From NCBI GenBank assembly GCA_020279385.1, contig GCA_020279385.1_4762.2: a stretch of 64,000 nucleotides of DNA; one strand, given 5' to 3'. The position numbers and the translations under genes were made by a program. Origin of the DNA: a phage. This document shows, piece after piece, positions 3,499-43,064 of this stretch. Below the pieces are notes generated by a model that saw only the letters and a program-made list of their open reading frames with translations, did not search any database and was not told the DNA's origin. The stretch's first letter is position 1, and each line of letters opens with the position of its first letter.

Positions 3499-6400
3499 TT
3501 AGTCTTCCCAGATAAAATCTACGGTACGAGTCAAATTATTGGCAATAATTTTAACATTACCAACCTTGATCCAATCACGAACCGTCATAGAGTTCATCAA
3601 ACCACCTTCGGCAACCACTGCCCCGATTTCCTGAGCGGTAGGCTTGTTCTGTTTGGTGTAAATTTCGCCCCATGCGGTCCATTGACCATCTGTACCAGAA
3701 CGGATATAATGCTTATGAGTACCATCAGGCGACCAGATTTGGGTAAGGCCGTTTTCGTCAGTACCCCATTGCATCAATGTACCATTTTTCTTTTCTGGGT
3801 AGGTTTCTTTGATGTTTTGGGTAGTTACTCGCATGTTCCAGAAGCCAATGTTACCAATTGCTGGCGCAGTAGTAGCGATCGCTTCATGCTTAACGGATAC
3901 AATAGACGCATTATCCATAATCAATTTACCAGTCATTGTATCACCAGCATTCTTAACAAACTGACGATTAAGAACTTCGTCTGCGTTTCCTGCGTGGACG
4001 ATCTGATATTTCTGTCCGGCAATCTCTGTAGTAAGCGTCTGATAACCTGCTTTGATGTTAACACTTCCACCGTGACCGATATTCAGCATACCATCTGGGG
4101 AACGAGTCATTGCCGGATTAGACTGGTCAACAATGTATAAACCGCCTTGTTTCGCATACAGGTTACGACCTGCAATAAAGTCTCTATATGCTGTCGCGTC
4201 GCCATTGTGTTCCATAGCAAAGGCGTAATGCTCGACTAATCCACCATCATTGATTTTACCGAAAGCGATAGCATTACTATCAACAACTTGAGATGTTCCA
4301 GTGCCACCAACGATAATAGACCATGAGTTTTCCATACCTTCCGATGCGGTTGCGCCATGCAGAGTAATTCCGGTGTGACCGTCAACTCCACGCTCACCCA
4401 ACACCAGATGACCATTACTCGGATCATCAGTCGAGTTCTTAGTCACAAACAGAGTTTCAAAGGAACCTGATTTTAAGCACTCTAAATCGCCCTTCACGTT
4501 AACGTTTTTATTAAACGTGTAATTGCTCTCAATGGTCTGGTCAATGTCTCTACGCGCCCATTTAGCGGCCTCTACGTCACCCAATTTCAAACTATTCTGA
4601 GCGGTTGCCATCTTAGGTAAGAAATTAGCAAGTGCGTAGTTTAATCCTTTAGGGGTAACAGCAATTCCGTCATGCTGGTAGTTTCCTAGTTCTTGAGTAG
4701 AACCTTGCAGATTGTCACCAACAAAACAGTTTTCCTGAGTAGCAACTTTCAAGAAACCACGACGAGCTTCGGTTGCTTTCCATGTATCCTCTGTCTGAAC
4801 AACATATTTGAAGTTCTTCGGAGAAATTGCTACATTAGCCAGTGTACCAGCCACGGTTTCGGCTTGAGTACCAACTCGGATAATACCTTCTTTACCTTCG
4901 GTGGCCTTTTTGCCTTGCAGCTTTTTAGGAGTAATGATCGTAGCGTCATCTTCTCCTGCGTCTGTAAGCTGAGTAGTTGCAACTTTAGCGACACCTTTTG
5001 TATCTTCGGTTGCATCAAGACCGCTGATCATGATACCCTGCCACAAGTCACCAGTAAGGTTAAGCCCCTGAGTCGGGTCTACTTTCAAACGCTGCGCATT
5101 CTCAAAGAAGGTTTTAATCTTCAATGGGGTAGAAATGCGAGCATCGTCAAGACCTGCGTCAAATTCCGGTTGAGTTGCAATTTCTGCTAAACCATGTAAA
5201 GTTTCCGTTGCGCGGCGAGTATGCAGCTTTTTAGGCGTGATGATATGGTTATCACTTTGACCTAAGTTTGTTTCTTCCTGAGTTGCAATTTCAGCGATAC
5301 CAGTGCGCGATTCGGTAGCAGTACGTTTCGTTAGCGTGCGAGTCGTGATTAGTAAAGCATCTTGCGGGGTTGATTCTGTAGCCCCTTGCACTTCCGCGTC
5401 AGTTGCCAGATAACCAACACCACGGGAAGTTTCGGTCGCCTTGACTTCGTTGATGTTTTGTGGCGTAACAATTTTAACATGGTCGTTGATGTTATAGATC
5501 CCTGTACCAGCTTCACCACGTCTAGCGGCAGCACTACCGCCAGCCTGAACAATTTCAGCAATACCAGCGAGATCTTCGGAAGCGCGACGTTCTTCTAATT
5601 TCTTAGGAGTAATAGCGCGGGTATCGTCTAAACCTTCATTGGTTTCTTGCTGGGTTGCAATTTCCATCACGCCACGACGGGCTTCGGTAGCAACACAATC
5701 ATTTAACTTTTTAGGCGTAACGATAACATCATCCAGGAAGCTGGAACCAGTATCTTGATGCGTTTCCGCTTGAGTTGCAATGCGAGCAATACCGCGTCGA
5801 GTTTCGTTGGCTGTTTTGTTAGCCAGAACCTTTGGAGTCACCGCAACTTCGTCGCTAGGATTATCTTCATGGTTTTTGTTTGTTTCATCCTGGGTAGCCA
5901 GTGCAATTACACCAACACGATCTTTACGAGTCGGATCTACTCGTTCTACAATCGGGTGAGCATGTGCCACCAACCAGTATTTCTTACCATCATCACCTTC
6001 TGAATAAGAGAACTCCAGATAAGGTACATAATCATTTGCAGCGTTGAAAGACAATTCAGACACTCCCGTCCATGTATCGGTCCCATTGAATGGGTACTCG
6101 CTACGCTTAGGAAACTGAACCATGTTTTTCTGAATAAGGATTTTTGTATCCTCTGTGGCGGTGATAATACGGCAATTCTGGTTTCCGTGCATATACTGCA
6201 TAGAAACTTGAATACGATCACCCGGCTCGACATTGGTTGGTAAAGTCAAGGTAACATCACGTTCACCAAATACTGCAACATAGCTATTAGGGGATAAGCG
6301 AGTATCACTAATGATAGGATTCAAGCGAACAGACTGATCACCATCCCACAAACGCCATAAGTTTTCCGGTTTGTCAAATATGAATACACCATGACCGCTA

Positions 6401-20353: not shown

Positions 20354-20377
20354 ACGCACATCGAAACGGAGGAACAT

Positions 20378-20596
20378 ATGGAAACAGAAGAACAAGTCAT
20401 TGCATATTTTCATCGTAAAAAGATGAAACTTAGAATCGAAAAACAGTACATCAATCACTATATTGACCGAGTCCACTTAACAAGTACACCTTACCTATTC
20501 CGGTTGATAAACCCTCGAAAACGGTGGGATAAGTTGGATAGAAACACAAAAATAATTGATAAGCTCACTCAATGGTGGAATGAATACAACAAGTAA
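20378..20596 (+). CDS. Hypothetical protein (72 aa)
   Basis: ORF immediately after promoter/leader. Confidence 0.45.
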   Translation: METEEQVIAYFHRKKMKLRIEKQYINHYIDRVHLTSTPYLFRLINPRKRWDKLDRNTKIIDKLTQWWNEYNK

Positions 20597-23338: not shown

Positions 23339-23787
23339 GCATAGAAATATTGTCTACGCAAGAGCAGATAAACAATTTTAATCTTGTTGATTATCTGGGG
23401 ATAGGTGCAAGCATTATTATCCTGATGGTGTTTTCAATTTTCGTGATACACTGGATGTTTAAGAAAGCACATAAGAATTTTCAGACCGCCATAATCCATG
23501 TCTTCGCTGTGCCTATTGTATTTGCGCTTTCTTCGTGTACAATGGACCATTATTCACAGGAACCGAAATTACATCCTCCACTACCAGCACCAATAGAAAA
23601 AGTTGACATTGACCTGAAAGTGGATACAATAGACGGTAAACCTAGAGTTTCTATGTCGTGGGAGGACTCCCAAAAATTCAGAGTCTGGCTTGCGGATATT
23701 AAGAGATATACACTTGAAAGTAAGTTGATCATGTGTTATTATCGAAAAGAACTTAATGAGGAACGGTGCAAACCGAAGGAGAAATAA
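23335..23787 (+). CDS. Putative o-spanin lipoprotein (Rz1-like; PseT.2-like); alternative start near 23455
   Basis: Lipobox-like FALSSC after a hydrophobic stretch, then proline-rich PKLHPPLPAP; internal Met (MFKKAHKNF...) gives a canonical lipoprotein signal peptide. Confidence 0.4.
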   Translation: MSIEILSTQEQINNFNLVDYLGIGASIIILMVFSIFVIHWMFKKAHKNFQTAIIHVFAVPIVFALSSCTMDHYSQEPKLHPPLPAPIEKVDIDLKVDTIDGKPRVSMSWEDSQKFRVWLADIKRYTLESKLIMCYYRKELNEERCKPKEK

Positions 23788-28268: not shown

Positions 28269-28737
28269 TAATGAAGGGGCGAAAGCCCCTAAACCTAAAA
28301 AATTGTCAAAGAAAGAGCAACGCCAGATCCTGAAAATGAAATACGGTGGACGTTGTGCCTATTGTGGCGAGGAACTAGGGGATCGCTGGCACGCAGACCA
28401 CATCAAACCAGTATTGCGACGCTCAAAAGTAGTCTATGATGAAAATGGACGAATTGCCCGTAATGATGATGGATCGTGGAAGTATAAGGTTGTAGGAATG
28501 CATAAACCGGAACATGATATACTTGATAACATGAATCCGTCGTGTGTGCAATGCAATCTTTATAAAAGCTGTATGGGCTTAGAATACTGGCGTAAGTGTA
28601 TACGCGAGAACTTCCAGAAATACATTCAGCGCAATATGGGGTTGCGAGCGGCTAAACGCTTTGGCTTACTGTCAATCCACGACCAGCCAGTAGAATTTTA
28701 TTTCGAAAAGTATGAGCGCGAGCATCAAGAAAAATAA
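28261..28737 (+). CDS. HNH endonuclease (small, free-standing)
   Basis: CAYCGEELGDRWHADHIKP...NMNPSCVQCNLYK: HNH His-Me finger with Cys pairs. Confidence 0.75.
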   Translation: MCDNEGAKAPKPKKLSKKEQRQILKMKYGGRCAYCGEELGDRWHADHIKPVLRRSKVVYDENGRIARNDDGSWKYKVVGMHKPEHDILDNMNPSCVQCNLYKSCMGLEYWRKCIRENFQKYIQRNMGLRAAKRFGLLSIHDQPVEFYFEKYEREHQEK

Positions 28738-28750
28738 TTCAAAAAAGTTG

Positions 28751-34669: not shown

Positions 34670-34998
34670 TGAGATTGTTTAAGTATTCGCTAACGTCAAA
34701 TTACGATAAACAAGGTCATTGCATCCGTTGCCCTGATTGTCATAGCCATAACATCGAAAGCAAGATCACCGATCATATTGATGGACTTTGGTCGCCAGCA
34801 AGTGAAATAGAATACTATTGCTCTGATTGTGGAATTGTAGTAGCATATTGGGCATACGGATCATATGATCCATACTTCCAGATGGGAGAGCGTTCAATCC
34901 CTGCGCTCATCTGGAGAATTAAGAACAATATCCGCCATTCATGGGATGAGTTCTTAAAAGATATTGATTTACGTGATGATCCATTCAGGAGACTATAA
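34666..34998 (+). CDS. Zinc-ribbon protein (110 aa)
   Basis: CIRCPDC ... CSDCG (CxxC-x29-CxxC); coupled to flanking genes. Confidence 0.5.
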   Translation: MMRLFKYSLTSNYDKQGHCIRCPDCHSHNIESKITDHIDGLWSPASEIEYYCSDCGIVVAYWAYGSYDPYFQMGERSIPALIWRIKNNIRHSWDEFLKDIDLRDDPFRRL

Positions 34999-34999
34999 C

Positions 35000-35518
35000 A
35001 TGAACCGTTTAACGCCTAAACGCCGCTACTATACCAATACTAAAAACTTTGTTATCTCTGTTTACGAAGCATGGTTAGAAGATGGCTATATCAACATGAA
35101 CCCAGATTATCAGCGTCCTTTAGTATGGGACACCGAAAACAAACGTATGTTTATTGAAAACCTGATTAATGATTTTCCGGTTGGTGCTATCGCAATGGCT
35201 AAGATTGATGATGGCTCTCGCTATGAGATCGAAATCGTGGACGGTAAACAGCGTTTAAACGCAATATTCTCCTTTATGAAGGATGAGTTTAGCATTGCCG
35301 GTAATGATGATTCTATGTTGTATTACAGTGATTTTACGCCAGCAGAAAAGCGACGTTTCCGAAATCTCGGACTACCCGCGATCATGATGGAAGAGAGCAC
35401 ACGAGAAGACCGATTAGAGTATTTCTACAAAACAAACTTTTTCGGTGTGCCTCAATCGGAAGAACATCGCCAGCATGTGATTGCCCTATTGCAAGATGAG
35501 CAATTAAAAAATAACTAA
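35000..35518 (+). CDS. DUF262 (ParB/GmrS N-terminal-like) domain protein
   Basis: DYQRPLVWDTENKRMFIENLINDFPVGAI...IVDGKQRLNAI matches the DUF262 signature (DxQR...W...DGQQR); ATG after CAGGAGA. Confidence 0.6.
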   Translation: MNRLTPKRRYYTNTKNFVISVYEAWLEDGYINMNPDYQRPLVWDTENKRMFIENLINDFPVGAIAMAKIDDGSRYEIEIVDGKQRLNAIFSFMKDEFSIAGNDDSMLYYSDFTPAEKRRFRNLGLPAIMMEESTREDRLEYFYKTNFFGVPQSEEHRQHVIALLQDEQLKNN

Positions 35519-35525
35519 AAAGTTG

Positions 35526-35554
35526 TTGACAGGGGATCGGTGATCCCCTATAAT
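35526..35554 (+). promoter_or_regulatory. PeSL-type early promoter
   Basis: TTGACA - GGGGATCGGTGATCCCC - TATAAT; same spacer as 29890..29918. Confidence 0.55.
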
Positions 35555-35590: not shown

Positions 35591-35803
35591 ATGGCTAACA
35601 TCGAAATCATCATTACCGACGTAACTTATGACCGCATTAACGAAATCGGTACTGCATTACTGGAAGATGGAACAACTCGTACCATCAACTACGCAGAATA
35701 CGTTGAAATGCGTGGTTGTATTAAACGAGTAGGAAAATATACCCTGATTGAAAAAGACTATTCAGGATACACCTTAGAGCAATTGCTTGATGGTGCATTA
35801 TAA
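35591..35803 (+). CDS. Hypothetical protein (70 aa)
   Basis: MANIEIIITDV...; first five codons shared with 33463 ORF, so the repeat runs into the coding start. Confidence 0.5.
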   Translation: MANIEIIITDVTYDRINEIGTALLEDGTTRTINYAEYVEMRGCIKRVGKYTLIEKDYSGYTLEQLLDGAL

Positions 35804-35808
35804 TAAAA

Positions 35809-35833
35809 AGGGGGCGTTAAGCCCCGTTTTCAT
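35809..35833 (+). terminator. Stem-loop / terminator
   Basis: GGGGCGTTAAGCCCC hairpin followed by GTTTTCAT. Confidence 0.5.
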
Positions 35834-35871
35834 AAATATAGGTTTATAGGTTATCAACTAGAGGATATAAA

Positions 35872-37923
35872 ATGTTTAACTTAGAAATCGACGATCTAAT
35901 GATTGAATCTTTCGAGAAATGGCTGTTGACGGAAGAGGAAGAAAACTTTGGCAGTATTGCTCCTGTACAGTGCTTAAAGCCTAAGCAGAATCCTAAACAG
36001 CTTTTTGCAGTACAGACACGCGATAAAGATGTGATTGTCCGTCTTTGCAACTTCACCAACAAAACACCTAAAATCATTCGTATGGGCGACAAGACCGCAC
36101 ATGTTGTACTGTGCGAAATGAACAAAAGCGGTCGTATTGTACAGCTTAAAAATGGTCTAGGCGATAACCCGATTGCAGTCATGGCAAGTGCTTTTGATGT
36201 GGTTATGGAAACAGCCCGTAAAGCGCAATTAGACGCTGTTATGTTCCGTTTTAACGTATCCCGCATGAAAGGTAAGACCGAACTGATTAAGCGCGTTATA
36301 GAGCGTTTGGTGCGTCGTACACCGAAGTTTGAAGTATTCCAGCAGGAAGTAATGACCAGCAAAAAGATCGCTTTAGTTGTTGTCAAGCGTCGCGGGATAG
36401 CGATTGATAAGATTAAAGGGATTAAACTTGATGAATCCTTGTTCACTAAAGTAGAAAGTGATTTAGGTGATCGCTGGGTATCTAAGGCTACTGGTGAATC
36501 TCTGACTAAAGATGAAGCGTATGCGGCTAGTCTTGTGTCAGAAGAAGAACGAAACGCGGAAGCAGAACAACGCGTAGCGGCTAAATCTCGTTTGACTAAA
36601 GAAGAAATGCTGAAAACTCAAGCGACCTATAACAGCGACTATGTGAATCATCCAGAAAAAATTAATCTTAAACCGGAAGAAGATATCACCGAAGCCGAAC
36701 CTAAGAAACAGTTTAATACTCTGATTGACCGTCAAGCCTTAGAACGTTCAACCGCCCGTTCTCTGAATGACTGGACAAGTGATATTATCACTCGCTATGG
36801 TTTCATGCGTACTATTTTTGAAAGCGAAGCCGATGCAAAATACGCAGTAAGCGAACTGGTAAAAGTTCAGGATCAATATGATCCGTTGTCTGCGGAAGTT
36901 ATCGCAGCATCAATCAAACGCTTAAAAGAAATCATGAGCGAGGAAGTATTCGAAAACAAGATCACCGCCCTGGCAATGGATCGAGTAGACCAGTCTATGC
37001 CAGCAGATGTAAAAGCTGAAATGCTGCGTAGTCATATCACCCAGATTAAAACCGATGCCCTACGTAATGTTGCTTCCGGTATGTTTGAAGCAATTGCTAG
37101 CAACATGGGTGAAATGATGGCAGATATTGATCTTGATCTGCCAGGTGCGGAAGGTTTTGTGTTGAGCGAATATGCGGATGCAGCATACATCAATATGAAC
37201 AACTTCCTAACCGACCGTAAGCTGGAAGAATTTGATGGTATCGCAGATCCAGAAGAATTGGTCAAGATGTGCGATGCACTGGATAATGCCTTCTCTAACT
37301 ATGGTGTTAAACTTGATCCGGGTACTATTCTGTATCGTGGTATGGACTTCCGGTCTCAAATGTGGGAAACTGCACGTAAGCAAAAAGCGTTTTACTTTAA
37401 AAACTATGTGAGCACTTCCCTTGCACCTAACATTTTTGGCGGCTGGAATGCAAACGTGGCTAGTGCCGTTGCTGGTGTTGATTCTATGGCTGGCTCTCGC
37501 GGTGAAGGTGGCGCTAATGTTGCTTTCTCCATTGCTGGCGCGGAAAACATCCCTGTATTGCCAGTAGGTAACAAAGCATTTGCTTACAAAGAATGCGAGA
37601 TTTTACTTCCTCGCGGTGTTGTGTTATCCTTTGATACGGTAACTCGTGCTACGGCATCGACGGATTCACAAGAAACTTATTACATTGAGGCACATATTAT
37701 GAACAAAAATGAACTGGCAGCATTACAAGAATCTGGCGAGATGATCGCGGACGGTGATGCATTCATCCGTGAAGGTGTTGTTAAACCTGCTTCTGACCTG
37801 TCTTTCTCCAGCTTTATTACCGAAGCTAAAACCGAACGTAAGAAAGCAGATAAGGCAACTCTACGTCAGCTTATCGCTGATCTGGTATCTGTAGACGCAA
37901 TGCCAGATAAATTTAAAATGTAA
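35872..37923 (+). CDS. alt: Alt-like ADP-ribosyltransferase
   Basis: 683 aa (T4 Alt ~682 aa as recalled); ART R-S-E triad LYRG, YVSTSL, KECEILLPRG; position next to gene 30. Confidence 0.85.
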   Translation: MFNLEIDDLMIESFEKWLLTEEEENFGSIAPVQCLKPKQNPKQLFAVQTRDKDVIVRLCNFTNKTPKIIRMGDKTAHVVLCEMNKSGRIVQLKNGLGDNPIAVMASAFDVVMETARKAQLDAVMFRFNVSRMKGKTELIKRVIERLVRRTPKFEVFQQEVMTSKKIALVVVKRRGIAIDKIKGIKLDESLFTKVESDLGDRWVSKATGESLTKDEAYAASLVSEEERNAEAEQRVAAKSRLTKEEMLKTQATYNSDYVNHPEKINLKPEEDITEAEPKKQFNTLIDRQALERSTARSLNDWTSDIITRYGFMRTIFESEADAKYAVSELVKVQDQYDPLSAEVIAASIKRLKEIMSEEVFENKITALAMDRVDQSMPADVKAEMLRSHITQIKTDALRNVASGMFEAIASNMGEMMADIDLDLPGAEGFVLSEYADAAYINMNNFLTDRKLEEFDGIADPEELVKMCDALDNAFSNYGVKLDPGTILYRGMDFRSQMWETARKQKAFYFKNYVSTSLAPNIFGGWNANVASAVAGVDSMAGSRGEGGANVAFSIAGAENIPVLPVGNKAFAYKECEILLPRGVVLSFDTVTRATASTDSQETYYIEAHIMNKNELAALQESGEMIADGDAFIREGVVKPASDLSFSSFITEAKTERKKADKATLRQLIADLVSVDAMPDKFKM

Positions 37924-37940
37924 TTTTTAAGAAATAATGG

Positions 37941-37985
37941 TTGACTCAAACGGGGACTAGTTTTATACTAGCCCCGTTTTCTGTT
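37941..37985 (+). promoter_or_regulatory. Combined terminator / PeSL-like promoter
   Basis: TTGACT - 17 nt - TATACT with -10 inside CGGGGACTAGTTTTATACTAGCCCCG hairpin followed by TTTTCTG. Confidence 0.45.
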
Positions 37986-38001
37986 ATATGGGAGGTTTAA
38001 A

Positions 38002-38826
38002 ATGTTCAAACAATTACAGGATTTTCGTCTTTCAGAAGAATCACGCGAATCAATGATGGAACGTATGGACAATTATATTGAAACATATGACATTGAGGGG
38101 ATTAATGGTTACATGATCACTGAGATGATCAGCGATCAGATTAACTTTGATGATTATGTGAAGGTTATCCGCTTCCTTGAGCGTGAGACACAAGATTATG
38201 GATTTGTCAAGAAAATCATTAATGTGATGTATGAAGTACACTCCGAAGACTTTGGAGATAATGTATTCAAACATTACAAACATAACAACATAACCCCAGC
38301 AGAATATAATGCAATCTGTGATTATGTATCTGAACAATACGAATGGGTAAATGGTGCTCTCTTAGGGGAAGAAGACATGACCGATGAGATATCAGAGATT
38401 GTCGATTTGATGGATTGCGTCATGGATAAAACCGAAAAGTTAAACGGTACTCTTTATCGCGGTCAACATCTTGACATTCAGACAATAGAGCGCATCATTG
38501 AAGATAAGGAGTTTACCTTTAAAAACTTTGTATCGACCAGCATGACACCGATCATCTTTGGAGGATGGCTATCAAACAGCACTAGCCTTTATTGTGAGAA
38601 TCGATATGAATCAATGACCGGAAAGATGCAACATTCTTGTAATGTATCATGGGTAATTGACGTAAAAGATCATAAAGGTTTTGTTGTTGGGTCAATTGCA
38701 TGGAACCCTTGCGAATGTGAAGTAATTTTACCGCGCGGGACTTGCGTCAAGGTAAACGACGTAGTAGAATCTTTCGGCGATGAGAATCGTAGACAATTTA
38801 CAATTTTCGGTGAGGTGACTAAATGA
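38002..38826 (+). CDS. Second ADP-ribosyltransferase (Alt/Mod-like paralogue, 274 aa)
   Basis: LYRGQHL, KNFVSTSMTP, CECEVILPRG: same R / STS / ExE triad and flanking context as the Alt C-terminal domain. Confidence 0.75.
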   Translation: MFKQLQDFRLSEESRESMMERMDNYIETYDIEGINGYMITEMISDQINFDDYVKVIRFLERETQDYGFVKKIINVMYEVHSEDFGDNVFKHYKHNNITPAEYNAICDYVSEQYEWVNGALLGEEDMTDEISEIVDLMDCVMDKTEKLNGTLYRGQHLDIQTIERIIEDKEFTFKNFVSTSMTPIIFGGWLSNSTSLYCENRYESMTGKMQHSCNVSWVIDVKDHKGFVVGSIAWNPCECEVILPRGTCVKVNDVVESFGDENRRQFTIFGEVTK

Positions 38827-39308
38827 AAATGATTAAACTGATTGGTCTTGCGGCTGCATTCATGCTTACTGGTTGTGCCAACATGGAAGCTATGATGAAT
38901 GCTAAATCAGATCCGGTTTTCTTGCTTCGTGAATGTAAAGCAGCATATGCAAGTGATGATCAGATCGAATCGTGCTTTATTTCTAAAATGGAACGTCGAG
39001 ACGTGGATCGCGTTAAAGTTGGTTTAGCACCACAAACGCAGATGTTCAAGGATGCAATCAAAGAAGCGCGGGAAGAGAAAGCACAAGAAGAAAAGAAGCG
39101 TCAAGAAGAATTGCGCAAGCAGAAAGAAGAGTCTATACAACTTGAGAAGATGAAAGCACGGGATCGCTGTATTATCATGTCTGACATGCAGATAGAGCAA
39201 GAAGCAAGAAAGGCAGCATTAAACGGTGATTATGACCGTTATGAAGAACTTAACAGCGCAGAATTTCAAACTAAGGCACTAAAATATTGCAATGATTTAG
39301 CAAAATAA
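38823..39308 (+). CDS. Putative lipoprotein with charged coiled-coil region
   Basis: Signal peptide MKMIKLIGLAAAFMLTGC with lipobox LTGC; K/E-rich EEKKRQEELRKQKEE segment. Confidence 0.6.
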   Translation: MKMIKLIGLAAAFMLTGCANMEAMMNAKSDPVFLLRECKAAYASDDQIESCFISKMERRDVDRVKVGLAPQTQMFKDAIKEAREEKAQEEKKRQEELRKQKEESIQLEKMKARDRCIIMSDMQIEQEARKAALNGDYDRYEELNSAEFQTKALKYCNDLAK

Positions 39309-39336
39309 AAAGGCGGGGGATAATCCCCGCCTTTCG
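39309..39336. terminator. Hairpin between convergent genes
   Basis: AGGCGGGGGATAATCCCCGCCT between plus-strand lipoprotein gene and minus-strand gene 54. Confidence 0.55.
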
Positions 39337-39340
39337 CTTA

Positions 39341-40273
39341 TCAGAACCAGTTAGTGACAGTATTCACCACACGCCCACCAACGCCATTTAGACGCGATAA
39401 AGCATTACCAGCAGCAGATAACCCACTATCAAGTAAATTATTGCCGAAAGTGTTTGTTATTGCGTTTATTGCCTTATCCTCAATCCATTCTCGCGCGGCT
39501 TGCTCTCCTACAGCACCAGTTTGCATAGAACGATATGCGAAAGTAACATCGAATGTTGTGATTTCGTTGTTGTTTTCATAGTTTAATTCCGGTGCACTCA
39601 CACCAACAGGAACACAACCATTAAACATCATGATCGTGTGAGGAACTCCCATTCGGTTATGTAAGTTGACCTGAATATCTGCTTCAACGTCAACAGGAAG
39701 CGCACGAAGCCCTGTAACGGGGTCTTCCACTGAGTTAACCCAATCCTGCATTGCTCTATAGTTTGATGCGCTAGAGTCCATTCTAAAGCTCAATACAAGC
39801 GGATCAAAATCACGTCCGGTAATTCGAATGTTTGGCGCATTGTGGTTACGGTCCATTTCATAATTCAATCTGTTTTCTGGAACCTTAACAGCATACACCA
39901 GAAGACCGCTTGTCTTATATGCCATATTGAACCAGTCAAGAGCATACGTACCAACATCAAATTGCCCCAGAAGAGATTGAACTACGCGGGATGACATTGC
40001 ACCTAAAAGATACTTTTTGACACCGGATGAATCAACAGCACGCCTAACACCCTGTACAGCAAGATTTGTTAATGCGTCAGTATAATCACCACGAGTAATC
40101 CCGAAATAGTCATTTAATGCATTTGGTATAATATCATATACCGCACCGCCCATACTTTCTAGGATCGCTTGTGTCTTATTACTTGGAGTGGTGGCAAATG
40201 CCACACTGAATAAGTTCGATCGCTGAAAGTCAAGGTTAGCGGCTTGTTCGTTAAAGTCATTTAAATCAAACAT
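39341..40273 (-). CDS. 54: Baseplate tail-tube initiator gp54
   Basis: 310 aa; FDLNDFNEQAANLDFQRSNLFSV..., NIRITGRDFDPLVLSFRMDS, YRAMQDWVNSVEDPVTGLRALP match T4 gp54 as recalled. Confidence 0.9.
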   Translation of the reverse strand: MFDLNDFNEQAANLDFQRSNLFSVAFATTPSNKTQAILESMGGAVYDIIPNALNDYFGITRGDYTDALTNLAVQGVRRAVDSSGVKKYLLGAMSSRVVQSLLGQFDVGTYALDWFNMAYKTSGLLVYAVKVPENRLNYEMDRNHNAPNIRITGRDFDPLVLSFRMDSSASNYRAMQDWVNSVEDPVTGLRALPVDVEADIQVNLHNRMGVPHTIMMFNGCVPVGVSAPELNYENNNEITTFDVTFAYRSMQTGAVGEQAAREWIEDKAINAITNTFGNNLLDSGLSAAGNALSRLNGVGGRVVNTVTNWF

Positions 40274-41331
40274 TATGCCGCACTCCCAAATATAGTACCA
40301 CGGGAAAGTGTCAAGATCTCTCTAAATGATACTTCCAGAACAAAGGTACTCGGCAAGTTAGGAGAAATAGCAAGGCCATTAAACTTACCATCAGGCGACT
40401 TGTCCAGACGTACACTTGAGATCTGAGCGGGACCAAATGCATCGCTACGCCCTTCAAACGATGTACGCTTGCCGAAGTTAGAGATCATCCATATTGTCGG
40501 GTTAGATACAGTAATTACGTTTGATAGAAAATCGGTGATCCCTTCAAACAGCGTATCATTTCTCTTTGCCTCGGCTGGAGTGGATTTGCTCAATAGTGTA
40601 TTTTTATACCACGCATCAACTTCCGCTTTTAATTCTTTTGCTGTGCTGGAAATACCACTAGAACCATAAGACAACTCTAAAAACGTTTCGTATATGATCA
40701 GAATATTGCGAAGGTCTTCAATACTACGTGGGGTTAGATGCCATACGTAGTTTTTCGTTCGTGCGTCAGCACCCGCATACATGCTTCGCGCAGTATTATA
40801 AATCTGTTCACCGTGATCGGCAAGGTATCCACCAGTAATACTTTCGATACCACCAAAAACGGCAGTAGATGCCATATTAGAAAGAGCACCGCCTAAAGTA
40901 CCACCGCCGCGAGAAATAACAGATTCACCAACATCATTAAACTTATGGCTGGCAGCGTCAACGTCAGATTGACTACGAGGAAGAAGAATATTAGCAATTG
41001 CCTCGCGGTCAAACGCAGCATTTCTCCCTCCCAAATTTAAATCAAAACCAGCGATATTAACGCTACCGCCAAAACCGCTAGCAACATTTTTCTTTTTCCT
41101 GAAATCACGCAGCGATCCAGTAGTACGAGATGTGTAATCGTATGCAGTGAATAACAGACCATTATTATATAAGTCGTTGATATAATAACCGCTAGCATCA
41201 TTACCGCTAGCACGTTCAGCGGGGAATTGAGCGGTTAATGTTTTCCCTTTATTTTTTGAGGTAAAACCAGCGGAGGTTTTAACCCCCGCTTTAAAGCTAT
41301 CAACGGCATCATTGATAACACTAATTTTCAT
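40273..41331 (-). CDS. 48: Baseplate tail-tube cap gp48
   Basis: 352 aa; position and size as T4 gp48. Confidence 0.75.
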   Translation of the reverse strand: MKISVINDAVDSFKAGVKTSAGFTSKNKGKTLTAQFPAERASGNDASGYYINDLYNNGLLFTAYDYTSRTTGSLRDFRKKKNVASGFGGSVNIAGFDLNLGGRNAAFDREAIANILLPRSQSDVDAASHKFNDVGESVISRGGGTLGGALSNMASTAVFGGIESITGGYLADHGEQIYNTARSMYAGADARTKNYVWHLTPRSIEDLRNILIIYETFLELSYGSSGISSTAKELKAEVDAWYKNTLLSKSTPAEAKRNDTLFEGITDFLSNVITVSNPTIWMISNFGKRTSFEGRSDAFGPAQISSVRLDKSPDGKFNGLAISPNLPSTFVLEVSFREILTLSRGTIFGSAA

Positions 41332-43064
41332 TAAAAGTTCCCCATATTAATTGTACCGGGGGCATCAATTCTAGTTGTTGGTGCACCCTGTTTAATAGTT
41401 CTATTGTTTGTTACAATTTGTGTATTATTTACGTTTGAGGTCTGATTTGTCGTTTGTTGCTGGATTGCAGCTTGTTTCTGCATTTGTTCAGTACGCTCCG
41501 CTTGTTTTGCTGTTTCCGTTTCAGTTGCAGGAACAGGTTTAGCTGGAACCACACCCTTAGTTTTATCGGTATACATCTCATCAAATTTTTCAATAAGACG
41601 CTCTAACTGAGAACGATCACTTTCAACTAATGTAGGATCTTGAACTTGCTCACGGTAAACATCAATATCCTTTTTCAACTCTTCCATTCTTTCTTTGTCA
41701 TAGTCACCGCTCAAATTCTCCATAACTTCATTAATATTATTGATCGCTCCCTCGCTTTTAATTCTAAGTTTACGACTAGCAGATCGTTGTTCAGCAGAAA
41801 CAGACTTATATTCTCCGCGTTTTAATTCTTCTTGTCGTTTCTCTGCGTCAACATCCTTTTGATCTCTCCAGCCCAGACTAACAAGACCTTCGTTAACTTT
41901 ATCCTTAATAGATTCGCCTATGGCCTCGCCAATATCACGGGCTTTTCCGGTCCAGCCAGTACGCTCCCCGTATTTGTCCTCTTCGTGTTCAGACTCGACC
42001 TTATCCATTAATTCGAGTTCTCTTTCATTTGGCGTATAGCCTTGAGCGACAGCAGATTTTAAAGCACCATATTCTAACTTATCGGCATAATCACCCATAC
42101 CAGGGATCATGCGAAGAATTTTAGCAATACCCGTAGTGATAATTCGATCAAGTTGGATAAAGGTTTTATAGAATGCATCACCAATACCCATAACAAGAGA
42201 TTTAATTAATTCTCCATATTCACCTTTAGACCAATAATCTCGAACTTGACGAATAGTTGTTAGAATATCACTAATTGGTCCAGCCCATTCTCCGGCCTTA
42301 TCCATAAATTCATCGAATTTTGTTTCGAATAAATCACTCCAATATCTGAAATGAATCATAAGGGTGTCGATGGCAAAAACAATACCCATCAAAATAGCGC
42401 CCCATTTTGCGGCTTCTGCCATAGCGGTCAAGGTGATCTTAAATAACATCCCTAAGACCTTATTAGAGATACCTATGGTTTCTTTAAATCCTCCACGAAC
42501 AACTTTAAGAAGATTTTCCATAGAATCCGCATTGCGCTTATCTGCGGCGTTCTTCTTCTTCCGTTCCTCAACATCTGGTTTTTTCTTTGGAAGACCTTGA
42601 TAGTTGTCATTATTAGGCTGTTCCGGTACAATAGGCAAAACTGGCTGAGGTGATGGCATTGTTTGCGGTTGTTCCGGTTTTTTCAGTGCTTCTTCAATCG
42701 CACCAATACCGCTAGCCATTTTACTGACAACACCAAATCTACGTTCCATCATAACACCAAAACCACGTAATTTCTCATTCATCTGAGAAGAGAAATTATT
42801 GAGTTTTTGCAATTCTTCATAAGTTTTTTGGGTATTGCCAGCGGTAGATTGGGTATTCTCTGCCGTCAATTCATTGGCTGCGGTGTTATCCTCTACCGCA
42901 CCAACAACTTCATTAGATTTTTGTTCTACTGTCTCCGCCACCAATTCGGTAGCGGCTTGCAAATTATCAATAGAATCAAGTTTATCTAACTTGTTAAGTT
43001 TATCAATCGGATTTTCTTCCGCTTCCTTGCGCATCCCGCGAAATGATGTTAATGCGTCATTCAT
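41331..43064 (-). CDS. 29: Baseplate hub / tail-length protein gp29
   Basis: 577 aa with central hydrophobic segment and charged C-terminal half; synteny 28-29-48. Confidence 0.75.
   Translation of the reverse strand: MNDALTSFRGMRKEAEENPIDKLNKLDKLDSIDNLQAATELVAETVEQKSNEVVGAVEDNTAANELTAENTQSTAGNTQKTYEELQKLNNFSSQMNEKLRGFGVMMERRFGVVSKMASGIGAIEEALKKPEQPQTMPSPQPVLPIVPEQPNNDNYQGLPKKKPDVEERKKKNAADKRNADSMENLLKVVRGGFKETIGISNKVLGMLFKITLTAMAEAAKWGAILMGIVFAIDTLMIHFRYWSDLFETKFDEFMDKAGEWAGPISDILTTIRQVRDYWSKGEYGELIKSLVMGIGDAFYKTFIQLDRIITTGIAKILRMIPGMGDYADKLEYGALKSAVAQGYTPNERELELMDKVESEHEEDKYGERTGWTGKARDIGEAIGESIKDKVNEGLVSLGWRDQKDVDAEKRQEELKRGEYKSVSAEQRSASRKLRIKSEGAINNINEVMENLSGDYDKERMEELKKDIDVYREQVQDPTLVESDRSQLERLIEKFDEMYTDKTKGVVPAKPVPATETETAKQAERTEQMQKQAAIQQQTTNQTSNVNNTQIVTNNRTIKQGAPTTRIDAPGTINMGNF

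Follow-up and report, generated by a model that had tools for sequence, protein, structure and literature searches.

We report here on a lipoprotein gene carried by a 64,000-nucleotide stretch of phage DNA (contig GCA_020279385.1_4762.2 of assembly GCA_020279385.1; the whole stretch is called the window below), the orthologue of RB49p182 (NP_891753.1) of the Krischvirus phages, that is, of the RB49-like, T4-type coliphages. Our results show that 38823-39308 is a real, conserved and fast-diverging gene for a secreted lipoprotein, and that its exported domain exists in at least three mutually ~30% identical versions, which sit at one predicted early gene inside genomes that are otherwise 98% identical. 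We tentatively propose that the product is an early exclusion or competition factor, tethered to the outer membrane, that acts on other phages once they have adsorbed, a reading that we consider possible rather than probable. The bare existence of the gene is not new, since it is already in the databases and is partly labelled there 'putative lipoprotein'. In the literature that we searched, the following appear to be undescribed: the domain-precise allelic cassette; the cysteine framework with its charged spacer of variable length; the deeply conserved early unit that the gene forms with an ADP-ribosyltransferase (ART) gene; and the independence of the alleles from this transferase and from the receptor-binding proteins.

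Replacement of the exported domain as a cassette

The gene was found in all 59 Krischvirus-type phage records retrieved. It is 99-100% identical in RB49, Phi1, JSE, ECD7, Cognac and ~50 other phages of the group, where the database labels are 'hypothetical protein' or, in phages W115 and KFS-EC, 'putative lipoprotein' and 'Lipoprotein'. Eight of the 59 records carry at this position a protein of only 27-30% identity, and besides the main type, allele A, at least two further allele types can be told apart, B (e.g. in 011D4) and C (in Whisky and JK32). Between the window and 011D4, a phage classed in the species of RB49, the identity is 99% for Alt, 100% for ART2 (the second, shorter transferase, encoded directly upstream of the lipoprotein), 100% for gp54, 99% for gp48 and 98% for gp29, and it falls to 25% for the mature lipoprotein. 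The nucleotide identity of 98% breaks at position 38860 and resumes at 39292, and in the 48 kb that the two have in common only two stretches are dissimilar, this one (38861-39291) and 227 nt at 20368-20594. When the whole 011D4 genome was set against RB49, the window and OZ035808, a complete genome with allele A, three segments were private to 011D4, the longest being the lipoprotein cassette with 431 nt. The remaining two, with lengths of 210 and 138 nt, fall among small ORFans; one of them is the stretch at 20368-20594, and the 138-nt segment was placed by coordinate mapping onto RB49 only. The stretch at 20368-20594 is a typical small-gene replacement of a hyperplastic region: the window has there a basic ORFan of 72 residues and 011D4 two unrelated ORFans of ~55 residues, and the small open reading frames (ORFs) of this segment have neither a signal peptide nor a membrane segment.

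The cassette seems to have been assembled in more than one way. Whisky joins an A-type signal to a C-type mature domain and JK32 a B-type signal to a C-type mature domain, and the homologues P0039 and P0042 likewise differ in their combinations of signal and mature types; since the two parts are found in such mixed combinations, they point to repeated recombination at the lipobox. Other exchanges have other borders. Locus L013 (1-1821) is 96% identical to the window in the C-terminus of Alt, 62% in ART2 and 44% in the lipoprotein, and locus L017 (2-972) is 91% identical in gp54, 74% in ART2 and 42% in the lipoprotein; in these two the whole unit, from the promoter-early stem-loop (PeSL) described below to the terminator, seems to move as a block. 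In L015 and L016 the synonymous divergence (dS) rises from ~0.2 in alt and ART2 to ~0.9 in the lipoprotein gene, gp54 and gp48, which places a recombination boundary right at the junction of ART2 and the lipoprotein gene. Beside allele B the baseplate and tail genes are 98-100% identical; beside allele C (L003 from JK32 and L004 from Whisky, against window 39341-43064) the identity is 86% for gp54, 76% for gp48 and 53-66% for gp29. The lipoprotein gene is the most diverged of the neighbourhood in every comparison. Among the structural genes here, the fastest-evolving is that of gp29, the tape measure, with a ratio of non-synonymous to synonymous rates (dN/dS) of 0.13-0.15.

Is the gene, then, a passenger at a hot spot of recombination that the phage could mostly do without, its diversity being neutral mosaicism and its product of no specific selective value under most conditions? 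It does lie at a module border with promoter and terminator elements known to mediate shuffling (PMC2839356), with the jump of dS at its junction, and in T4 the same slot is filled by the small ORFs alt.-1 to alt.-3, which are unrelated to the lipoprotein. The selective record speaks otherwise: dN/dS is ~0.1, the lipobox, four cysteines, D60, G67 and G135 are kept among homologues of 23-46% identity, and not one of the 59 records is without the gene. We therefore regard a mere passenger as improbable.

Independence of the alleles from the receptor-binding proteins

The alleles do not follow the adhesin. The gp38 proteins of Krischvirus fall into two groups relative to RB49, one of at least 94% identity and one of ~80-84%, and the ratio of allele A to non-A phages is 11:3 in one and 10:4 in the other (Fisher p=1.0). 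The gp37 tips closest to that of RB49 (allele A) belong to the allele-B phages AV108 and PHB13, and ART2 is unchanged across the A/B swap. On K-12, RB49 and Cognac (allele A) and Whisky (allele C) depend on OmpA, and Brandy (allele A) does not (PMC9569957). The whole-genome comparison of 011D4 with three allele-A genomes gave no co-varying phage gene beyond small ORFan segments. Because the alleles are independent of gp38, of the gp37 tip, of OmpA use and of ART2, the variable partner of the lipoprotein is probably neither the phage's own receptor-binding machinery nor ART2, nor a protein that varies between 011D4 and the RB49-type genomes.

These results bear on a second function that an earlier note on this DNA, made from the sequence alone, had suggested for the protein, receptor masking. 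As in the Cor and Llp systems, the lipoprotein would cover the phage's own receptor from the periplasmic side, blocking superinfection and protecting the progeny from receptor on debris. T5 Llp and the Cor proteins of phi80, N15 and T1-like phages are likewise phage outer-membrane lipoproteins facing the periplasm (for RB49p182 this location is predicted). T5 Llp, according to the citation of Decker et al. 1994 in PMC11990801, is made early, and early expression is probable here too. There are also weak PHROGs and NCBIfam matches to Cor (phrog_1119 and NF047972, E=0.0014-0.058). These matches are confined to residues 1-45, that is, to the signal peptide, which is the limit of any homology to Llp or Cor; the mature part of RB49p182, of 143 residues, is about twice as long as theirs, all-helical, with four cysteines and a charged spacer, and has no fold match. 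The OmpA protein is a plugless barrel of eight strands, so masking it from the periplasm seems unlikely. Nor is the gene beside that of a receptor-binding protein: in RB49 it lies at 111 kb, gp38 at 45.4-46.1 kb and gp37 at 151.7-154.7 kb. With alleles that are independent of the adhesin group (p=1.0), of the gp37 tip and of OmpA use (PMC9569957), receptor masking is disfavoured, and we give it little credence.

Family and homology searches

A PHROGs search covered the product over residues 1-161 with the 161-position profile phrog_16112 (E=9e-110), a profile that 14 of the 15 divergent homologues match as well. Pairwise comparison with an orthologue of 82% identity gave a dN/dS of 0.10-0.12, and it is this ratio, together with the existence of distant homologues, that makes us take the gene as real. 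The family is small. A word-indexed search of 5.8 billion proteins yielded 41 relatives, and HMMER, run exhaustively with a family profile over 1.84 billion cluster representatives, gave 12 matches at E<=0.001, ten of them proteins of 155-174 residues, or fragments, of the same kind as RB49p182; the last two are weak and fall in proteins of more than 1,200 residues, where the match is probably to a low-complexity charged helix. A structure search of BFVD matched the PHB13 protein (E=1e-6, probability 1.0), which confirms, at the level of predicted models, that divergent alleles share one fold. Beyond phrog_16112, Pfam, NCBIfam and PHROGs returned only weak signal-peptide matches (TraV, Cor, 'T6SS immunity lipoprotein', Lpp/OprI), and the matches to PDB sequences were limited to lipoprotein signal peptides. 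Thus, neither the sequence-profile nor the structure searches gave a sequence or fold relative of known function.

Two T4 proteins were considered as homologues and rejected. The product of alt.-3, encoded in the same slot, has no signal peptide and no similarity to the lipoprotein, and the alignment with Spackle reached an hhalign probability of 7.9% over 19 aligned columns, all of them in the signal peptide. A published remark sees a link between an 'ORF 182' and pathogenicity islands, plasmids or integrons (PMC2839356); the present searches found no such relatives.

Lipoprotein signal and predicted location

The N-terminus of the product, MKMIKLIGLAAAFMLTGC, has two lysines among its first seven residues, an uncharged hydrophobic core with a mean Kyte-Doolittle value of 2.0, and the lipobox LTGC, which ends at residue 18. 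It agrees with a rule in the style of PROSITE PS51257 (a positive n-region, an uncharged hydrophobic h-region, a lipobox [LVI][ASTVI][GAS]C and the cysteine at position 15-35) and with the G+LPPv2 regular expression. Over the 15 homologues, of 23-46% identity, Gly17-Cys18 is invariant though the signal peptides otherwise differ, the lipobox varying between LTGC, LNGC, INGC, LVGC, LFGC and MTGC. Every full-length member starts with a lipoprotein signal (the called start of P0045 is probably four codons too short, and the upstream ATG would give MKKIMILGV...). The canonical lipoprotein signal peptide that the earlier note had read here is thus borne out by both rules and by the conservation of Gly-Cys in the family.

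In E. coli the '+2 rule' for Lol-dependent transfer to the outer membrane is established. The residue at +2 is alanine or serine in all 15 members, never aspartate, and for this reason Lol-dependent sorting to the outer membrane is predicted; we infer, from the sequence, lipidation at Cys18 and an outer-membrane location of the protein. A lipobox scan of the RB49 genome and of the window found two credible lipoproteins only, the RB49p182-type gene and the o-spanin at window 23455-23787.

Architecture of the mature protein

The residues invariant in the 15-member alignment are M1, G17, C18, C38, C51, D60, G67, C116, G135 and C156. The four cysteines other than that of the lipobox are taken as a periplasmic hallmark and, being invariant in an exported protein, would in the simplest reading form two disulfides, C38-C51 and C116-C156. 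AlphaFold2, run on a 14-sequence alignment, gave an all-helical model with a mean predicted local distance difference test score (pLDDT) of 87. Its helices are a hairpin of residues 31-41 and 45-65 (pLDDT >90), one of 62 residues (72-133) and two short C-terminal ones (137-143 and 146-159).

The earlier note had described the K/E-rich segment in this protein as coiled-coil-like. Its composition stands, E, K and R making up 59% of residues 76-112; its packing as a coiled coil does not. A canonical coiled coil has hydrophobic residues at a and d over several heptads and tolerates indels only in heptad-compatible steps. In a hand test of residues 72-133, the best of the seven heptad registers placed only 6 of the 18 L, I, V, M or F residues at a/d, and A87 and L97 were the only seam residues in 83-104. 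The charged segment has ten opposite-charge pairs at i/i+3 and eight at i/i+4, and the natural indels of the main allele (-5, -7 and -15 residues, and a duplication of 11) all fall within residues 81-101. With so few a/d hydrophobics and with such indels, the stretch is better described as a single charged helix or a spacer than as a packed heptad coiled coil. The whole suggests an architecture of two small disulfide-stapled helical modules parted by a charged helix of variable length. In the model, ~37 residues of helix would span roughly 5-6 nm, which would bring the distal module near the peptidoglycan.

Such a protein invites comparison with other lipoproteins that reach into the periplasm. 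Like Lpp/OprI, it would be a helical protein anchored in the outer membrane, and 11 of the 15 family members end in lysine, although in allele C and P0048 the last residue is asparagine instead. Unlike Lpp/OprI it has no heptad or alanine-zipper seam, and Lpp lacks Cys-stapled subdomains; only two of the 15 members match the NCBIfam model NF040598 (Lpp/OprI), with E values no better than 0.017, which pass no cut-off. With the o-spanins (Rz1, T4 PseT.2) it would share being a phage outer-membrane lipoprotein, and in o-spanins the cysteines are functionally important.

This loose likeness to spanins, with the conserved cysteines and the long helix, is what could be said for an accessory role in lysis timing, as an outer-membrane modulator of spanin, holin, antiholin or lysis inhibition; RB49 does have t, rI and rIII-type genes and spanins. 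The protein is long and helical, neither short nor proline-rich as an o-spanin is, and its gene lies far from the lysis genes with no inner-membrane partner gene beside it. The pair of T4 type, pseT.3/pseT.2, which is in a listing of spanin families (PMC6139136), is complete and ~15 kb away: by the RB49 annotation it lies at ~23.0-23.8 kb of the window, where the earlier note had correctly put it. The spanin genes of 011D4 are ~97% identical in nucleotide sequence within the shared 48 kb, and no lysis gene lies in any of the segments replaced genome-wide. We think a role in lysis timing quite unlikely. The protein was also considered as an o-spanin subunit itself, and this was rejected, as neither of its neighbours, ART2 and the convergent gp54, is an i-spanin gene (an i-spanin has an N-terminal transmembrane helix and a periplasmic coiled coil); ART2 lacks both a transmembrane helix and a signal peptide.

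Probable early unit with ART2

The gene would be expressed from a promoter upstream of ART2 (Table 1). The PeSL of RB49 and phi1 is defined by AT-rich sequence upstream, near-consensus σ70 boxes, a stem-loop of G and C tracts within or overlapping the promoter, a Shine-Dalgarno sequence and a start codon, and other copies of it are strong σ70 promoters and terminators (PMC2839356). At 37920-38004 the window has all of these elements: AT-rich sequence, TTGACT-17-TATACT, a GGGG...CCCC stem (GGGGACTAG...CTAGCCCC) that overlaps the -10 box and has a T-run behind it, GGGAGG and ATG. The predicted promoter ends 32 nt before the start codon of ART2. It is found at the same distance in L007, L011 and L013, where ART2 is only 44-62% identical and where substitutions in the two arms of the stem have left its pairing intact; in L009 the promoter is a variant that reads TTGACA-17-TAGAAT and lies 28 nt ahead of the ATG, and one locus, L008, has no PeSL. 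No late promoter TATAAATA was found on the + strand between 35 and 39.3 kb. The conserved PeSL motifs and the absence of this late promoter make early expression of ART2 and the lipoprotein probable, as far as sequence motifs can tell. A hairpin equivalent to the one between the lipoprotein and gp54 genes stands behind the gene in most related loci.

Table 1. Positions in the window of the features of the lipoprotein locus
Feature	Position	Strand	Remarks
alt (RB49p184 orthologue)	35872-37923	+	first ADP-ribosyltransferase; ART2 is the second
σ70-type early promoter of PeSL, predicted	37941..37969	+	-35 TTGACT 37941-37946, 17-nt spacer, -10 TATACT 37964-37969
PeSL stem-loop GGGGACTAG-TTTTAT-ACTAGCCCC, then GTTTTCTG	37952..37983	+	overlaps the -10 box; likely terminator or attenuator for alt transcripts
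ART2, Alt-like ADP-ribosyltransferase	38002..38826	+	274 aa; PF03496 E=4.3e-16; phrog_15144 E=4e-198
Shine-Dalgarno region GGTGAGGTGA, inside the end of ART2	38809..38818	+	GAGG 7 nt before the lipoprotein ATG
Lipoprotein gene, orthologue of RB49p182 / NP_891753.1	38823..39308	+	161 aa plus stop; phrog_16112 E=9e-110; dN/dS 0.10-0.12
Signal peptide, lipobox L15-T-G-C18 (nt 38865-38876)	38823..38876	+	Cys18 predicted lipidated first mature residue; +2 Ala
Allelic replacement cassette	38861..39291	+	no nucleotide similarity to 011D4; signal codon 13 to 5 codons before the stop; spans almost all of the mature protein
N-terminal helical hairpin, invariant Cys38 (38934-38936) and Cys51 (38973-38975)	38934..38975	+	from alignment and AlphaFold2
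Charged helix, aa 76-112, in predicted helix aa 72-133	39048..39158	+	length-variable spacer, 59% E/K/R
C-terminal helical subdomain, invariant Cys116 (39168-39170), Gly135 and Cys156 (39288-39290)	39168..39290	+	from alignment and AlphaFold2
GC-rich hairpin AAAAGGCGGGGGATAATCCCCGCCTTT	39308..39335	.	between the convergent lipoprotein and gp54 genes; putative bidirectional intrinsic terminator
gp54	39341-40273	-	convergent with the lipoprotein gene; then gp48 and gp29 (baseplate and tail genes)

The upstream gene is indeed a second ADP-ribosyltransferase, as the earlier note had it: its product carries the PF03496 domain and follows Alt, of which it lacks the N-terminal two thirds, and its RB49 counterpart, RB49p183, is annotated as 'similar to C-terminal part of T4 Alt'. 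The overlap of start and stop is also there, the ATG of the lipoprotein gene (38823-38825) and the TGA of ART2 (38824-38826) forming ATGA. The RB49 map is identical, with alt (RB49p184), RB49p183 and RB49p182 followed by the convergent genes 54, 48 and 29. In 10 metagenomic loci, which carry 7 divergent homologues (down to 23% identity), the same arrangement was seen wherever the contig was long enough: alt, a short PF03496 transferase (264-282 residues), the lipoprotein gene and the convergent gp54. The junction in the related loci is ATGA, TAATG, an 8-nt overlap or a 1-nt gap, and GAGG is kept in the same position in most of them.

The coupling to ART2 that the earlier note had proposed thus holds for the operon and its translational junction, which are conserved, and not for the evolution of the two proteins. 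It could be thought that the lipoprotein is a dedicated partner of ART2, as an immunity protein, chaperone or targeting factor, and all the loci examined, down to those of 23% identity, share the order of the two genes, with stop and start overlapping or abutting. ART2, which has no signal peptide, needs cytoplasmic NAD+ and the lipoprotein is exported, so that the two would end in different compartments. A 100% identical ART2 stands beside a 25% identical lipoprotein, and a recombination boundary runs between the genes. A dedicated partnership is, in our opinion, very improbable.

Functional readings

What could be the role of this protein in the infected cell? We propose that it would be synthesized early, as the second cistron of a σ70-driven ART2-lipoprotein unit, exported by Sec, lipidated at Cys18 and cleaved by signal peptidase II, and that, with alanine or serine at +2, it would be sorted by Lol to the inner leaflet of the outer membrane. 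Two Cys-stapled helical subdomains joined by the charged helix of variable length would then hold the C-terminal one close to the peptidoglycan, several nanometres beneath the outer membrane. The infected cell would have its envelope altered so that phages arriving later, once adsorbed, are stopped or put at a disadvantage, and a number of exchangeable alleles of the exported domain would persist through conflict with variable external partners. In function, though not by homology, the protein would correspond to T4 Sp/Imm or T5 Llp. Spackle (Sp, gp61.3) and Imm of T4 also act early and in the envelope, where they keep a second phage that has adsorbed from infecting; Sp, an inhibitor of the tail lysozyme gp5 of such phages, is soluble in the periplasm and Imm resides in the inner membrane, whereas RB49p182 is a predicted outer-membrane lipoprotein. 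Since neither sp nor imm is detectable in RB49, where the 61-41 interval is taken up by unrelated ORFs (dc1, dc2) that lack a signal peptide, their role is left open there. Superinfection exclusion, which the earlier note had named first, is in this broader sense plausible, given the early promoter, the envelope location, the allelic diversity and the lack of a detected sp or imm homologue.

Several points weigh against this reading. The protein has no sequence or fold likeness to any characterised exclusion protein, and in the literature on lipoproteins, exclusion, transcriptomes and virion proteomes of RB49 and Krischvirus we found no paper on an RB49p182-type gene. Pairwise dN/dS (0.10-0.12) indicates purifying and not positive selection. 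The promoter is a motif prediction, and the absence of spackle and imm homologues comes from tblastn and annotation, which miss remote short homologues. Neutral mosaicism at a recombination-prone module border, where dS changes abruptly, could by itself give the allele pattern, and a protein that is early, in the envelope and variable also fits anti-defence or host takeover.

This last is the strongest rival, and we rate it as rather unlikely. The lipoprotein would bind a periplasmic or outer-membrane component of the host, such as a stress sensor, a cell-wall enzyme or an abortive-infection system, and its alleles would track strains of E. coli. The early promoter, the envelope location and an allele diversity that is unlinked to any phage gene agree with this, as does an operon shared with a transferase that modifies the host; moreover, most of the early genes that PeSLs flank in RB49-like phages belong to the accessory content of hyperplastic regions (PMC2839356). 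It is harder to reconcile with phages of different alleles having been isolated on the same laboratory strains, and Pfam, NCBIfam, PHROGs and PDB gave no likeness to known anti-defence or regulator-binding proteins (PADLOC was not searched).

Returning to exclusion, a more far-reaching form of it, to which we assign a low probability, is that these proteins would be a new and unrelated class of envelope 'incompatibility' determinants. With the protein tethered to the outer membrane, the spacer would act like a ruler, and the exchangeable exported domain would determine either the co-circulating T4-type phages that are shut out once adsorbed or the envelope defence of the host that is overcome. 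Frequency-dependent selection would preserve the alleles in the Krischvirus population, and they would travel as cassettes, with the conserved sequences of the signal peptide and the terminator as recombination arms.

Collections of coliphages for therapy commonly include Krischvirus phages (RB49, Phi1, JSE and relatives). If the lipoprotein sets the specificity of exclusion or counter-defence, it would matter for the design of cocktails, whose members could interfere with each other, and it would add a helical, spacer-containing type to the few phage lipoproteins that act on the envelope (Llp, Cor, o-spanins). Even without a measurable effect, the locus illustrates cleanly how a cassette is exchanged with domain precision in a module bounded by PeSL.

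Other observations

Distant from the lipoprotein gene, 011D4 (L019) has ~765 nt extra at window ~28721-28741. In L009, a distant relative on a 168-kb contig, genes with a Gp38_N domain and a Peptidase_M15 domain (3512-4330) lie a few kb upstream of alt, which is not so in the window. Upstream of alt, the window has a second PeSL, a perfect σ70 promoter TTGACA-17-TATAAT at 35526-35554 (+) with the hairpin GGGGATC...GATCCCC in its spacer; it precedes a small ORF at 35593-35803, behind which stands a hairpin terminator (35811-35825), and a late-promoter-like CATAAATA follows at 35832-35839, just upstream of alt. Finally, the L015 orthologue of the ORF of ~172-184 residues at 34964-35518 (+) carries PF03235 (GmrSD_N / DUF262), so by homology the product in the window would be a phage-encoded relative of the type IV restriction enzyme family that consists of the N-terminal domain only.

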